Positions 9,001 to 15,000 of a stretch of 24,660 nucleotides of DNA are shown here, piece after piece. Position 1 is the first letter of the stretch. Every line of letters begins with the position of its first letter. The position numbers are program-made. Origin of the DNA: a virus (taxonomy: Duplodnaviria > Heunggongvirae > Uroviricota > Caudoviricetes); the IMG/VR virus record IMGVR_UViG_2534681934_000023; one strand, written 5' to 3'.

Positions 9001-12000
9001 CGGCGTTCACACACAGTACGTCTGACTTCGGTAATATTCTGCTGGATGTTGCGAACAAAGCCATTCTGCAGGGCTGGGAAGATGCCCCTGAAACCTATGA
9101 ACAGTGGACGCGGAAAGGTCAGTTGTCTGATTTTAAAATTGCCCATCGTGTGGGTATGGGGGGCTTCAGTGCTCTGCGTCAGGTGCGTGAAGGGGCGGAA
9201 TATAAATACGTCACCACCGGAGATAAACAGGCCACTATTGCACTGGCGACCTATGGCGAGCTGTTCAGTATCACCCGTCAGGCCATTATCAATGATGATC
9301 TGAATATGCTGACCGATGTCCCGATGAAACTGGGCCGTGCGGCGAAATCCACTATTGCCGATCTGGTTTATGCCATTCTGACGTCTAACCCGAAAATCTC
9401 CACAGATAATGTAAGTCTGTTCGATAAAGCGAAACATGCAAACGTACTGGAGAGCGCTGCAATGGACGTGGCATCGCTGGATAAAGCCCGCCAGTTGATG
9501 CGCGTTCAGAAAGAGGGGGAGCGTCATCTGAATATTCGTCCTGCGTTCGTACTGGTACCGACGGCGATGGAGTCTGTTGCTAACCAGGTCATTCGCTCCT
9601 CAAGTGTCAAGGGGGCTGACATTAACGCCGGTATTATTAACCCGGTGAAAGATTTTGCGACCGTTATTGCAGAGCCTCGTCTTGATGATAACAGCCAGAC
9701 CACCTTCTACCTGGCTGCGTCAAAAGGCTCCGATACGATTGAAGTGGCTTATCTCAACGGTGTGGATACGCCATATATTGATCAGATGGAGGGCTTCAGT
9801 GTGGATGGCGTGACAACGAAAGTGCGTATTGACGCCGGTGTCGCGCCAGTTGATCACCGCGGTCTGGTGAAATGTACGGCGTAAACGTCGCAGACAACAA
9901 CTCTGATGGCCCGTAAGGGCTTTTTTTGTACCTGAAATCAGCCCCTGAACGGGGCTGTGCGGAGACAGTTATGGCAAAGAATTTTGTAGAAGAAGGAAAA
10001 ACGGTGGCGATTGTTGCCAGTGCAGCCATCAGCAGCGGAGATCTGGTGCAGGTGGGCGATGTTTTTGCGGTGGCGCTGACCGATATTCCACAGGGTGAAA
10101 CAGGCGACGGCATGACCGAAGGTGTGTTTATGCTGCCTAAGCTGAAAACGGATGACATGAAAACGGGTAAGAAGGTTTATCTGAAGTCAGGAAAAGTTCA
10201 GCTGACTAACAGCGGCTCTGATCCGCTGGTCGGGGTTGTCTGGGCAGATGCCGGAACCAGTGCAGAAGAAGTGCCGGTAAAACTCAATGTCTGATCCCTT
10301 TTCCCGGCTGGCAGCGCGTATGGATGCTATCACGGTCAGAAAGATGGGAAAGACAGCCTCGATTAATGATGTCGATATGACTGTGATCCCGGGAGAAACA
10401 CTGGCAGAGCTGAATGCTCTGTCCGGACCTGCGGTCTCTCTGGTGGTGTTTTCTTCGGGATACCGCCCACGGCGCGGGGATCGCGATATGAACCGCCCCG
10501 GAAATCCTGGAGACTAAACTCCCTGAGAAAGAGGTAAACAGGATGACTAAAAATACTCGTTTTTCCCCCGAAGTCCGTCAGCGGGCGATTCGTATGGTTC
10601 TGGAAAGTCAGGATGAATATGACTCACAGTGGGCGGCAATTTGTTCCATTGCCCCAAAGATTGGCTGTACGCCGGAGACTCTGCGTGTCTGGGTTCGCCA
10701 GCATGAGCGGGATACCGGGGGCGGTGATGGTGGGCTCACCAGCGCTGAACGTCAGCGTCTGAAAGAGCTGGAACGTGAAAATCGTGAACTGCGCCGCAGT
10801 AACGATATCCTTCGCCAGGCTTCCGCTTATTTTGCGAAGGCGGAGTTCGACCGCCTCTGGAAAAAATGATGCCACTGCTGGATAAGCTGCGTGAGCAGTA
10901 CGGGGTCGGACCGGTATGCAGCGAACTGCATATTGCCCCGTCAACGTATTACCATTGTCAGCAACAGCGACATCATCCGGATAAACGCAGTGCCCGTGCG
11001 CAGCACGACGACTGGCTGAAGAGAGAGATACAGCGCGTATACGATGAAAATCATCAGGTGTACGGTGTGCGTAAAGTCTGGCGTCAGTTGTTACGGGAAG
11101 GAATCAGGGTGGCCAGATGTACAGTGGCACGTCTCATGGCGGTTATGGGACTTGCCGGTGTTCTCCGGGGTAAAAAGGTCCGTACGACCATCAGCCGGAA
11201 AGCCGTTGCCGCAGGCGACCGCGTAAACCGTCAGTTCGTGGCAGAACGACCTGACCAGCTGTGGGTGGCTGATTTTACTTACGTCAGCACATGGCAGGGC
11301 TTCGTCTATGTGGCGTTTATCATTGATGTGTTTGCCGGATACATCGTGGGGTGGCGGGTCTCATCGTCTATGGAAACGACATTCGTGCTGGATGCGCTGG
11401 AGCAGGCGTTGTGGGCCCGTCGTCCGTCTGGCACCATCCATCACAGCGATAAAGGCTCTCAGTATGTGTCACTGGCCTATACGGAGCGACTAAAAGAAGC
11501 CGGATTACTGGCATCAACAGGGAGTACAGGCGACTCGTATGACAACGCGATGGCTGAGAGCATCAATGGTCTTTACAAAGCGGAGGTAATACACCGTAAG
11601 AGCTGGAAAAACCGTGCAGAAGTGGAACTGGCCACACTAACGTGGGTGGACTGGTATAACAATCGACGATTGCTGGGAAGGCTGGGCCATACTCCTCCGG
11701 CAGAAGCAGAAAAAGCTTATTATGCTTCCATCGGAAACGATGATCTGGCAGCCTGAGTTCACAGATAAAACACTCTCCAGGAAACCCGGGGCGGTTCAAT
11801 ATCAGGTACAACTGAGTCTTCGCCAGAAATACCAGCAACAGCTGGAGCAGTTGAGGCGGGATAGTGAGCAGAAAGGGACATATAACACGGATGACTACAG
11901 AAAGGCCGAGCAGGCGCTGACGGAGAGCCTGAACCGACAACTGAATGAGAATCGCCGTTACTGGCAACAGCTTGAAGTTGTACAGGGTAACTGGAAAAAC

Positions 12001-15000
12001 GGAGTCCTGCGTGCATTTCAGGATTTTACCGTGGATGCAGATAATACGGCAGAAACAGCAGAACAGGTGTTCTCGTCAGCCTTCAGCAACATGGGAAATG
12101 GCCTGGCAACTTTTGTCACTACCGGCAAACTCAATTTCAAATCCTTCACCTCTTCTGTGCTGTCAGATATGGCGAAAATCCTGGCGCAGGCAACCATGAT
12201 GAAATCGATAAAAGGGATTGGCAGTGTACTGGGATTTGATCTCAGCAGCCTTTCCCTGAATGCCAATGGGGGGATTTATCAGTCTGCTGATTTGAGTCGT
12301 TACAGTGGCACGGTGGTTAACCGTCCGACGTTTTTTGCTTTTGCAAAAGGCGCGGGTGTGATGGGGGAAGCGGGACCTGAAGCCATTCTGCCATTGCGTC
12401 GTGGTGCTGACGGTAAGCTGGGGGTTGTGGCGGATATTGGGGGTTCAGGTATGGCGATGTTTTCCCCGCAGTACAACATCGAGATCAATAACGATGGCAC
12501 GAACGGGCAGATAGGTCCGGCTGCCCTGAAGGCGGTTTATGACCTCGGGAAAAAAGCGGCAGCGGACTTTATGCAACAGCAGGCCCGTGATGGTGGTCGG
12601 TTAAGTGGAGCATATCGGTAATGGAGACGTTTCACTGGAAAGTGCGCCCGGATATGAATGTGGTATCAGAGCCGAAAGTGGTGACAGTGAAGCTGGGCGA
12701 TGGTTATGAACAGCGTCGTGCGGCGGGACTGAATAACCAGTTGTCGACTTACAGCGTGACGATACGTGTTCGTAAATGTGAACACCCATCTTTAAAAGCC
12801 TTTCTGGAACGGCACGGTGGCGTCCGTGCATTTCAGTGGACGCCACCTTATGACTGGAAACCGATCAGGGTGGTTTGTCGTAAATGGTCGGCAAGCGTGG
12901 GGGCGCTGTGGGTAACCATAACGGCAGATTTTGAACAGGTCGTGGCATAGGAGGCTCTGATGCAGGATATTCCACAGGAAACACATCATGAGACGACACG
13001 CCTCACTCAGTCAGCCCAGGCGGTGCTCTGGGAAATCGATCTGACAGAGGTCGGTGGTGAACGTTATTTTTTCTGTAATGAGCAGAACGAAAAAGGTGAG
13101 CCGGTTACCTGGCAGGGGCGGCAGTATCAGGCATACCCCATTCAGGGGACGGGATTTGAACTGAACGGCAAGGGCAGTTCTGCCCGTCCGACACTGACGG
13201 TTTCTAACCTGCACGGCATGGTCACGGGGATGGCGGAAGACCTGCAGAGTCTGGTCGGCGGAACGGTGGTCCGGCGTAAGGTTTACGCCCGTTTTCTGGA
13301 TGCGGTGAACTTCGTCAACGGAAACAGCGACGCCGATCCGGAGCAGGAGGTGATCAGCCGCTGGCGCATTGAGCAGTGCAGCGAACTGAGCGCGGTGAGT
13401 GCCTCTTTTGTACTGTCCACGCCGACGGAAACGGACGGCGCTGTTTTTCCGGGACGTATCATGCTGGCCAACACCTGCACCTGGACCTATCGCGGCGATG
13501 AGTGCGGTTATCACGGTCCGGCGGTCGCGGATGAATATGACCAGCCAACGTCCGATATCACGAAGGATAAATGCAGCAAATGCCTGAGCGGTTGTAAGTT
13601 CCGCAATAACGTCGGCAACTTTGGCGGCTTCCTTTCCATTAACAAACTTTCGCAGTAAATCCCATGACACAGACAGAATCAGCGATTCTGGCGCACGCCC
13701 GGCGATGTGCGCCAGCGGAGTCGTGCGGCTTCGTGGTAAGCACGCCGGAGGGGGAAAGATATTTCCCCTGCGTGAATATCTCCGGTGAGCCGGAGGCGTA
13801 TTTCCGTATGTCGCCGGAAGACTGGCTGCAGGCAGAAATGCAGGGTGAGATTGTGGCGCTGGTCCACAGCCACCCCGGTGGTCTGCCCTGGCTGAGTGAG
13901 GCCGACCGGCGGCTGCAGGTGCAGAGTGATTTGCCGTGGTGGCTGGTCTGCCGGGGGACGATTCATAAGTTCCGCTGTGTGCCGCATCTCACCGGGCGGC
14001 GCTTTGAGCACGGGGTGACGGACTGTTACACGCTGTTCCGGGATGCTTATCATCTGGCGGGGATTGAGATGCCGGATTTTCATCGCGAGGATGACTGGTG
14101 GCGTCACGGTCAGAATCTCTATCTGGATAATCTGGAGGCCACAGGGCTGTATCAGGTGCCGTTGTCATCAGCACAACCGGGCGATGTGCTGCTGTGCTGT
14201 TTTGGTTCATCGGTGCCGAATCATGCCGCCATTTACTGTGGTGATGGCGAGCTGCTGCACCATATTCCTGAACAACTGAGCAAACGAGAGAGGTATACCG
14301 ACAAATGGCAGCGACGCACACACTCCCTCTGGCGTCACCGGGCATGGCGCGCATCTGCCTTTACGGGGATTTGCAACGATTTGGCCGCCGCATCGACCTT
14401 CGTGTAAAAACGGGGGCCGAAGCCATCCGGGCGCTGGCCATGCAGATCCCGGCGTTTCGTCAGAAGCTGAGCGACGGCTGGTATCTGGTACGGATTGCCG
14501 GGCGTGATACAGGTGAAAATGAATTATCTGCCCGTCTTAATGAGCCGCTGGCAAATGGTGCCGTGATCCACATCGTGCCGCGCCTGGCGGGTGCTAAAAG
14601 TGGCGGTGTGTTTCAGGCAGTGCTGGGTGCGGCGCTGATTGCGGTGGCATGGTGGAACCCTGTGGGCTGGCTGGGGGCCGCGGCTGTATCGGGTATGTAT
14701 GCAGCAGGGGCCAGTATGATCCTGGGTGGTGTGGCGCAGATGCTGGCACCGAAAGCCAGAACTCCCCGTACACAGACAACGGATAACGGCAAACAAAACA
14801 CCTATTTCTCCTCACTGGATAACATGGTTGCCCAGGGCAATGTTCTGCCCGTTCTGTACGGTGAAATGCGCGTGGGATCACGTGTGGTTTCTCAGGAGAT
14901 CAGCACGGCAGACGAAGGGGACGGTGGTCAGGTTGTGGTGATTGGTCGCTGATGCAAAATGTTTTATGTGAAACCGCCTCCGGGCGGTTTTGTCGTTTAT

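Follow-up and report, generated by a model that had tools for sequence, protein, structure and literature searches.

An IS629 element that keeps both copies of its target duplication beside a 4,818-bp deletion of tail genes in an Sp3 prophage of Escherichia coli O157:H7

Introduction

The classical adjacent deletion caused by an insertion sequence (IS) through intramolecular transposition is one-sided and begins at the IS, which stays in place. It joins the last IS base directly to the new flank and, on that side, destroys the target duplication.

The closest described events are the IS629 polymorphisms and IEE deletions of O157 (Ooka 2009; Kusumoto 2011; Calvo 2023, PMC9943667), which concern the same element and the same host lineage as the locus reported here. 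Deletions next to IS629 that depend on IEE span a few nucleotides to over 40 kb, IEE carries out microhomology-mediated end joining, and nearly all seropathotype A/B STEC carry both iee and IS629 (PMC9943667). One proposed model has a strand switch or a primer realignment during copy-out that exploits microhomologies of 2-4 bp (bioRxiv 10.1101/2023.06.07.543989). An overlap of 4-6 nt was enough for IEE in vitro and 2 nt was not extended; 3 nt was not among the lengths tried (bioRxiv 10.1101/2023.06.07.543989). The loss of ISApl1 from Tn6330 (Snesrud 2018, in bioRxiv 10.1101/2023.06.07.543989), in the summary given there, likewise involves a copy-out-paste-in IS, 2-4-bp microhomologies and a proposed primer realignment.

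Here, we analysed a window of 24,660 nucleotides, the whole stretch of DNA under study, in which an IS629 element lies beside a large deletion of tail genes. The locus shares with the O157 IS629/IEE events, as they have been summarised, a prophage target, a deletion starting at the IS, a kilobase-sized loss and a short microhomology. Whereas those events are described as IS excision with or without flanking loss, our locus has kept the IS together with both duplication copies and lost one flank. It also differs from the summarised Tn6330 case, where ISApl1 itself was deleted rather than neighbouring DNA. Like the classical adjacent deletion, the loss is one-sided with the IS in place, but 3 bp of the old flank remain.

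Results

The window is prophage Sp3/CP-933K of E. coli O157:H7, aligning with Sakai Sp3 at 99.8-99.98% identity. Sakai Sp3 9076-19560 corresponds to window 1-10485 (99.98% identity) and 24379-37242 to window 11799-24660 (99.79%), while Sp3 19561-24378 (4,818 bp) is missing from the window. Against strain 319, the left flank is 100% and the right flank 99.8% identical. Sakai Sp3 is a defective lambda-like prophage with the same effector cargo as the window (nleB2, nleC, nleH1-1) and the same frameshift in the portal gene; its FII-Z-U-V-G-T-H block is complete and its J gene uninterrupted. It has no repressor or replication functions and a disrupted integrase, and neither circularisation, replication nor packaging occurred (PMC2669165). 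Relative to Sakai Sp3, the window is without the 4,818 bp, contains IS629 and has a frameshift in J.

The inserted element comprises the following features.

10489-11798, plus strand: complete IS629 (IS1203-type, IS3 family), 1,310 bp, from inverted-repeat mapping, domain matches and comparison with known copies
10489-10513: left inverted repeat (IRL), 25-nt imperfect inverted repeat with the right one
11774-11798: right inverted repeat (IRR), 25 nt, 88% complementary to IRL; the ends read TGAACC...GGTTCA
10543-10869, plus strand: orfA (Pfam HTH_Tnp_1)
10866-11756, plus strand: orfB (Pfam HTH_21 and rve)
10824-10940, plus strand: ALIL pseudoknot (Rfam RF01497, 121.5 bits, E=2e-32), signal for programmed -1 frameshifting from orfA into orfB

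The IS copies in NZRM4169 and strain 319 are 100% identical to that of the window, and RefSeq labels identical copies 'programmed frameshift'. The copy in Sakai Sp5, annotated 'IS629 transposase OrfA/OrfB' and 'IS1203 Family: IS3', differs at one of 1,310 nt. An earlier note on this DNA had placed IS629 at the same position, and its boundaries and content are borne out by the inverted repeats, the orfA and orfB domains, the pseudoknot and the Sakai copy. Since the element is complete and its frameshift signal intact, its transposase is plausibly active. The target-site duplication is 3-bp ATA, found on both sides of the IS and once at the empty site; the IS629 copy of Sakai Sp5 has CTTT on both sides.

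On either side of the IS, the window contains the remains of two interrupted genes.

9971-10294, plus strand: head decoration/cement gene, the intact upstream neighbour (Pfam Phage_cement_2; phrog_122 head decoration on the identical strain 319 gene)
10287-10484, plus strand: head-closure gene at the FII position (Sakai ECs_0831), first 66 of 91 codons (tblastn 100%)
10287-10517, plus strand: 76-aa fusion ORF, 66 native residues plus 10 from the target-site duplication and IRL (ORF calling)
11722-12621, plus strand: predicted 299-aa ORF whose ATG lies within the right end of the IS and whose frame continues into the H remnant
11799-12621 (tblastn match 11797-12618), plus strand: 3' remnant of the tape-measure gene H, residues 748-1021 of 1,021 (Tape_meas_lam_C, phrog_6747, phrog_24)

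The head-closure remnant matches Pfam PF13856 (Gifsy-2) and positions 1-66 of 91 of phrog_153, and its homologue in phage mEp460_4F5 is annotated 'Hc1 head closure protein'. BLASTP of the protein against lambda FII gave no similarity (E=5), and its Pfam matches included no FII-family domain. The protein is FII-like only by position and by the 'Hc1 head closure' annotation. The earlier description of the left flank as the first ~67 codons of an FII-like gene is thus right about its extent (codons 1-66 match) but finds no counterpart in homology to lambda FII. On the right, the H remnant matches Tape_meas_lam_C at 7.5e-23, the match to H begins at residue 26 of the predicted 299-aa ORF, and the intact H homologue is similar to lambda H (E=1e-51). 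The tblastn match to residues 748-1021 agrees with the earlier reading of this flank as the C-terminal ~270 codons of a gpH-like tape measure.

The genes expected between FII and M had been reported absent from the window, and indeed tblastn for Z, U, V, G and T found none anywhere in it and recovered only residues 748-1021 of H. The deletion took the 3'-terminal 25 codons of the head-closure gene, the whole of Z, U, V, G and T, and H up to codon 747. In Sakai Sp3, strain 319 and NZRM4169, the missing FII(3')-Z-U-V-G-T-H(5') block is present and collinear with the window flanks, and the isolated phages mEp460, Ayreon, phi458 and cdtI carry the same block at ~98% identity. Because related prophages and isolated phages keep the intervening genes, the FII/H arrangement is a deletion and not a natural gene order, as suspected before; aligning the flanks to related prophages sets the deleted interval at 4,818 bp (against Sakai Sp3).

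Downstream of H lie the remaining tail genes.

12621-12950, plus strand: M, intact (Pfam Phage_min_tail)
12960-13658, plus strand: L, intact (Pfam Phage_tail_L)
13664-14407, plus strand: K, intact (Pfam Prok-JAB and NLPC_P60)
14305-14952, plus strand: I, intact (Pfam Lambda_tail_I)
15013-18427, plus strand: J (tail tip/host specificity), with a +1 frameshift near 15773 (ORFs, comparison with strain 319, translation)

The M-L-K-I block (12621-14952) has one SNP relative to strain 319. The earlier claim that M-L-K-I-J are intact holds for the first four genes and fails for J, which the +1 frameshift splits into two ORFs (15013-15807 and 15758-18427). A donor search for a divergent 851-bp patch in J found no complete genome exceeding 97.8% identity over the full segment length. 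The lambda-type tail module of the window is therefore incomplete, without Z, U, V, G and T and with a partial H and a frameshifted J. Judged from its gene content, the prophage cannot build a tail shaft by itself, and the presence of the missing block in related prophages and isolated phages upholds what the earlier note had said on this point. The functional consequence adds little, because H was already interrupted by IS629 before the deletion (an order taken from the comparison below), the portal gene is frameshifted and Sakai Sp3 is already defective.

The junction itself was resolved by comparing the window with native FII and with H before and after the insertion.

10483-10485, no strand: deletion joint, GCG microhomology common to FII (ATCGCG) and H (ACAGCG), where the alignments of the window with strain 319 overlap
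10486-10488, no strand: left ATA duplication copy, H-derived (native FII has TTG; H left of the IS in strain 319 reads ACAGCGATA)
11799-11801, no strand: right ATA duplication copy (single ATA at the empty site of NZRM4169 and Sakai)

The empty H site reads CAGCGATATCAGG in NZRM4169 and Sakai. In strain 319 and 10 other complete genomes, the filled site reads ACAGCGATA, the IS and ATATCAGG in succession, with the full FII-to-H(5') block upstream. In all 11 genomes, IS629 occupies this ATA with the orientation seen in the window, flanked by a genuine ATA duplication, and no upstream tail gene is missing. The window reads GGGGATCGCG-ATA-IS, native FII GGGGATCGCG-TTG and H ACAGCG-ATA-IS. Since native FII continues from GCG into TTG, the left ATA comes from H. 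The earlier note had put the IS exactly at the deletion junction; instead, the FII/H joint lies 3-6 bp left of the IS end, and GCG directly abuts the left ATA. The deletion is thus contiguous (3-6 bp from IRL) with an IS3-family element whose transposase genes are intact, and the whole IS is retained with both duplication copies. ATA does stand on both flanks, as the note had seen, but the chance match it considered is contradicted by the TTG of native FII. A 3-bp microhomology at the joint is weak evidence, with a chance of 1.6% with the right end fixed and of ~5% otherwise. On these comparisons, the ATA pair is the original target duplication, with the deletion coming later. An IR-like ACCGCCC (7 nt of IRL) ~20 bp left of the joint was considered as a pseudo-end for a 'sloppy' attack by the transposase and rejected, as 17.6% of random 63-bp segments of this sequence contain a match of the same length.

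The same junction occurs on three public contigs, and we examined the sequence of two. Over 12.2 kb, AIFO01000014.1 shows 100% identity to the window; NJJE01000061.1 has the same joint but ends 93 bp into the IS. The three contigs were identified by exact-protein look-up of the 76-aa fusion protein, and one is listed as 5.36 Mb. Among 5,426 complete RefSeq E. coli genomes, none covers at least 80% of a 240-bp query spanning the FII-IS joint, and no single place covers at least 80% of the 3.2-kb region 9800-13000. The kinship of the deletion carriers with the 11 H::IS629 genomes refers to local sequence identity, not to genome phylogeny. An IS-free joint (FII...GCGATATCAGG...H) was not found among the complete genomes; the sole record with both flanks, MS10495, has a different joint. 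Its ydfJ-adjacent prophage shows an IS-free, 4,510-bp deletion with a microhomology joint that runs from ~codon 10 of Z through U, V, G and T and takes away two-thirds of H from its 5' end. Like the window, it kept the H 3' end and M-L-K-I-J; unlike the window, it has no IS, other endpoints, and a different prophage and chromosomal site. NZRM4169 carries a second, different IS629-bounded deletion in the same prophage as the window. With flanks GTC and CAT it retains no duplication, and we therefore regard it as a different type of event.

Discussion

The comparison shows the following course of events. IS629 entered codon 748 of an intact H gene in one O157:H7 sublineage, duplicating ATA, and a descendant then lost the 4,818 bp immediately left of the IS, with the new joint in GCG. 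This structure and order of events we hold with high confidence. As for the mechanism, copy-out transposition of IS3-family elements has the 3'-OH of one IS end attack the same strand 3 nt outside the other end, and here the flank is thereby left with a free 3' end right at the border of GCG with ATA. We suggest that this 3' end, or a break arising from it, was degraded leftward until it could pair again at a usable GCG, and that synthesis from there ran through ATA and the IS. Such repair primed by microhomology has been attributed to the IEE PrimPol, the companion of IS629 in O157; the iee gene itself is not within the window. That repair started at the strand-transfer point is a tentative proposal, drawn from a single joint and somewhat short of probable. 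Taken together, insertion, deletion and repair offer the best explanation, and a likely one.

The most serious alternative is an IS-independent illegitimate recombination, in which slippage joined two GCG triplets 4.8 kb apart, one of them beside the IS by chance. A 3-bp microhomology is typical of RecA-independent deletions, and the related MS10495 prophage lost the same module through an imperfect 9-bp microhomology; such deletions therefore occur without any IS. We nevertheless consider slippage improbable here, because on its right the deletion stops precisely at the outer boundary of the target duplication. For a deletion to end within ~6 bp of the IS end in a 3-kb gene has an estimated chance of roughly 0.2-0.4%; IS629-adjacent deletions are a documented class in O157 (PMC9943667), and NZRM4169 has its second IS629-bounded deletion in the same prophage. 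A false join of the contig across a multi-copy IS has to be weighed as well, given ~20 copies of IS629 per O157 genome and a source that is apparently a draft assembly. Yet the FII-GCG-ATA-IRL joint is unique sequence that recurs in the independent assembly NJJE01000061.1 and on the contig listed as 5.36 Mb, and GCGATA, being H sequence, links the left joint with the H insertion irrespective of the assembly to its right, which makes an artefact exceedingly improbable.

The perfect 3-bp direct repeat around the IS is also what a simple insertion into a pre-existing deletion joint would give, as the earlier note had envisaged. This order is strongly disfavoured: IS629 would have had to insert twice, independently, at one trinucleotide and with one orientation, in the otherwise complete H of 11 genomes and again in the joint, and the right end of the deletion would have had to coincide with that trinucleotide, while the complete genomes yielded no IS-free joint. 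Finally, the ATA match could be fortuitous if FII::IS629 recombined with H::IS629, or if the IS left end transposed intramolecularly into FII. Both are standard routes to IS-adjacent deletion, and the NZRM4169 deletion, with GTC and CAT and no duplication, fits this class. In the window, both would join the terminal IS base to contiguous FII, which has TTG rather than ATA after GCG, and GCG with the next three bases reproduces the 6 bp left of the IS in H. As the deletion is contiguous with H::IS629 and both duplication copies are kept, the junction sequence excludes the two routes, and we give this explanation next to no weight.

Insertion followed by an IS-adjacent deletion is an event of a known kind, ordinary prophage decay. 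In itself it is minor: the prophage could no longer excise, replicate or assemble before this further loss, and it is retained for its type III effectors. The deletion removed all tail-shaft functions, and the already non-viable prophage persists as a carrier of nleB2, nleC and nleH1. The joint can serve as a lineage marker, present on the three public contigs and in 0 of the 5,426 complete genomes (at least 80% query coverage). The ATA pair records the order of insertion and deletion and rules out two textbook IS deletion routes, and a retained duplication with abutting microhomology is a small, clean data point on how IS629 and IEE make flanking deletions. It is possible, though doubtful, that the joint is the IS-retaining natural footprint of an IS3-family side reaction. 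In it, the free 3' end of the flank that figure-eight formation creates 3 nt outside the IS end would be resected and would prime anew at a microhomology far away, perhaps with the help of IEE, so that kilobases of neighbouring DNA are lost while the element and its target duplication stay. Should such a side reaction be general, a kept duplication with abutting microhomology would be a diagnostic scar by which genome surveys could tell it apart from both intramolecular transposition and IS x IS recombination, and it would favour the copy-out strand-switch over the double-strand-break model for IEE.

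Prophage identity and the missing block

Sequence comparison identified the window as prophage Sp3 (CP-933K) of Escherichia coli O157:H7, with positions 1-10485 aligning to Sakai Sp3 9076-19560 at 99.98% identity and positions 11799-24660 to Sp3 24379-37242 at 99.79%. Absent from the window is Sp3 19561-24378 (4,818 bp): ECs_0831 loses its last 25 codons, ECs_0832-0836 (the equivalents of Z, U, V, G and T) are gone entirely, and ECs_0837, the tape-measure gene H, lacks codons 1-747. On the left, 10287-10484 codes for residues 1-66 of a 91-aa protein; on the right, 11799-12621 codes for residues 748-1021 of the 1,021-aa tape measure. 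Between them lies a complete IS3-family element of 1,310 bp, whose ends are imperfect inverted repeats of 25 nt (TGAACCGCCCCGGAAATCCTGGAGA and its counterpart).

Features of the IS629 element
10489-11798: complete IS629
within 10489-11798: orfA, HTH_Tnp_1 domain
within 10489-11798: orfB, HTH_21 and rve domains
10824-10940: ALIL frameshift pseudoknot (Rfam, 121.5 bits)

Two other O157 genomes have copies with 100% identity to the element, and a single base separates it from the copy in Sakai Sp5 named IS629 and 'IS1203 Family: IS3' by the Sakai annotators. An ATG within the element's right end opens a 299-aa ORF (11722-12621) that passes through the right inverted repeat (IRR), continues in frame into what is left of H, and could yield an IS-H fusion product.

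When the proteins Z, U, V, G and T from an intact relative were used as tblastn queries, no match was found in the window. Domains, translation and tblastn thus essentially bore out the earlier reading of an IS between the 5' part of an FII-like gene and the 3' part of H, with Z, U, V, G and T missing. The block from the FII position to H is present and collinear, at about 98% identity, in the isolated phages mEp460, Ayreon, phi458 and cdtI, which marks the window's arrangement as a deletion rather than a natural architecture. The label 'FII-like' is positional: the protein falls into Pfam PF13856 and phrog_153, its counterpart in phage mEp460_4F5 is annotated as Hc1 head closure, and no similarity to lambda FII was detectable. 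Z and H, at 50% and 26% identity, are true homologues of their lambda namesakes.

The deletion joint

Sequences at the joint and at the corresponding native sites
native head-closure gene: ...GGGGATCGCG TTG TTT ATG...
H, empty site (NZRM4169, Sakai): ...CAGCGACAGCG ATA TCAGGTAC...
H, strain 319: ...CAGCGACAGCG ATA [IS629] ATA TCAGGTAC... (textbook 3-bp target duplication)
window: ...GGGGATCGCG ATA [IS629] ATA TCAGGTAC...

ATA stands on either side of the IS in the window. Base-by-base comparison revealed that the three bases adjoining the left inverted repeat (IRL) derive from H and not from FII. The suggestion that ATA was a chance match fails, since the native FII gene does not continue with ATA. 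The crossover falls within a GCG common to both genes (window 10483-10485), which explains the three-base overlap between the two window alignments to strain 319. Hence the earlier placement of IS629 exactly at the junction was close but not exact: the joint lies 3-6 bp beyond the IS end. By chance, a microhomology of 3 bp is expected in 1.6-5% of cases.

The fusion protein created by the joint has 76 aa, 66 native residues followed by 10 read from the duplication and IRL. Three public contigs carry the exact protein: one in GCA_000249455.2, one in GCA_002464985.1 and one, listed as 5.36 Mb, in the genome that encodes QKB44348.1. AIFO01000014.1 of GCA_000249455.2 matches window 4287-16517 at 100% identity, and NJJE01000061.1 of GCA_002464985.1, an independent assembly, carries the same FII-GCG-ATA-IRL joint before the contig ends 93 bp into the IS. 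The joint was found in none of the 5,426 complete RefSeq E. coli genomes searched. Its presence on three contigs, including an independent assembly, and in none of these genomes indicates that it is genuine, inherited and rare.

Order of events

IS629 occupies exactly that ATA of H, in the same orientation, in 11 of 5,426 complete E. coli genomes, including strains 319, 350, 644-PT8, 180-PT54, 7636, Z1834, 1613 and NCCP 13892/13894/13906. In strain 319, the genome inspected, a full set of tail genes stands upstream of the interrupted H, and the window is 100% identical to it over 7.2 kb left of the joint. The simplest history is a single insertion into an intact H, followed by the deletion in a descendant. 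The earlier note had instead considered an insertion of IS629 into an already existing joint, whose IS-free form would read FII-GCG-ATATCAGG. With 11 genomes carrying the IS at the same ATA in H, that account needs a second independent insertion into the same trinucleotide in the same orientation, as well as a deletion endpoint coinciding with that trinucleotide, and we regard it as very improbable. We are confident in the structure and in the order of insertion before deletion.

In F8798, 143 and F6667, the IS629 match and the match to the H 3' flank lie about 0.3, 2.0 and 0.7 kb farther apart than in the window. This spacing suggests IS629 insertions at other positions of H in other O157 lineages.

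Other deletions and lesions

A related, ydfJ-adjacent lambdoid prophage of E. coli MS10495 (94-95% identity) has, at 12770-12840 of its locus, an IS-free deletion of 4,510 bp that begins near codon 10 of Z and ends within H, with the H 3' end and M-L-K-I-J kept and an imperfect 9-bp microhomology at the joint (AATCTGAAC / AAGATGAAC). The deletion is independent, and therefore the tail-shaft module was lost a second time. The Sp3-like prophage of NZRM4169 has, at 12001-13310 of its locus, a different, IS629-bounded deletion, equivalent to window 3892-9143 (3' end of the small terminase to mid capsid), flanked by GTC and CAT without target duplication; its H is intact and IS-free.

As the earlier note thought probable, the prophage is unable to make a tail shaft. 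This loss is not the lethal hit: H had been split by the IS prior to the deletion, and the portal gene (6331-7912), compared with its intact homologue of 1,509 bp in MS10495, has gained an A at 7426 (+1), which splits it into ORFs 6331-7455 and 7550-7912. The portal lesion is common to strain 319, and the gene is split in Sakai Sp3 too (pseudogene ECs_0827). Sakai Sp3 lacks repressor and replication functions, has a disrupted integrase, and did not circularise, replicate or package (PMC2669165). Tailed particles are made by other prophages in O157, so that their sight after mitomycin C induction would say little about Sp3.

The earlier note took M-L-K-I-J to be intact, which does not hold for J (15013-18427): a +1 insertion near 15773 (GGAGACGCGGCAC against GGAAAAACGCAC) leaves ORFs of 264 and 889 aa. 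Compared with strain 319, J has 24 changes in two patches, 15111-15408, with several differences spaced by multiples of three, and 15768-15859, which holds the insertion. No complete E. coli genome matched an 851-bp segment of J above 97.8% over its full length. Region 15111-15859 looks like a gene-conversion patch from another allele of J combined with a frameshift.

The right end carries type III effector genes, as in annotated relatives: nleB2 (20921-21901) and nleC (21935-22954) are open, and nleH1-1 is open from 23770 to the window end. Two single-T length differences from strain 319 in T-runs of the nleC-nleH1 intergenic region (23407 and 23437) may be real or homopolymer sequencing noise.

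Discussion

How the deletion arose is constrained by the retained H-derived ATA. Homologous recombination between an IS629 in FII and that in H, and classical intramolecular transposition, are both refuted, because each would set contiguous FII directly against the terminal T of IRL. Judging by the joint, this leaves a non-homologous joining that used 3 bp of microhomology and had its right end at the duplication's outer edge. Slippage independent of the IS, ending there fortuitously, seems unlikely; the positional coincidence is estimated at well under 1%.

Our best, though tentative, reading of this one joint is that such joining was initiated by the transposase or by IEE, the PrimPol accompanying IS629, whose gene iee is the ECs1305 homologue on SpLE1. 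In the IS3 family, the attack point lies 3 nt outside the IS end. Strand transfer would leave the flank 3'-OH exactly at this point, the duplication's outer edge; this 3' end, or a break derived from the flank end, would be degraded leftward, re-pair at GCG and then be extended over ATA and the IS. In copy-out-paste-in transposition of the IS3 family, the 3' end on one side is joined to the same strand a few bases beyond the opposite end, so the bridged intermediate has 'a small flanking sequence' at its junction (bioRxiv 10.1101/2023.06.07.543989). Chandler and colleagues suggested that primers realign at 2-4-bp microhomologies in the course of copy-out (bioRxiv 10.1101/2023.06.07.543989). 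IEE accompanies IS629 in nearly all O157 strains, promotes deletions next to the IS of a few nt to >40 kb, and performs microhomology-mediated end joining (PMC9943667). This literature is in line with re-priming from the flank end. The IEE events described in the work cited here are IS excisions, whereas at the window joint the IS stays.

The open effector genes beside structural genes that gather lesions fit cargo retention in a decaying prophage. The event itself is of an ordinary, known kind, IS629-associated decay of a defective O157 prophage, and its instructive detail is the retained target duplication with a microhomology abutting it.
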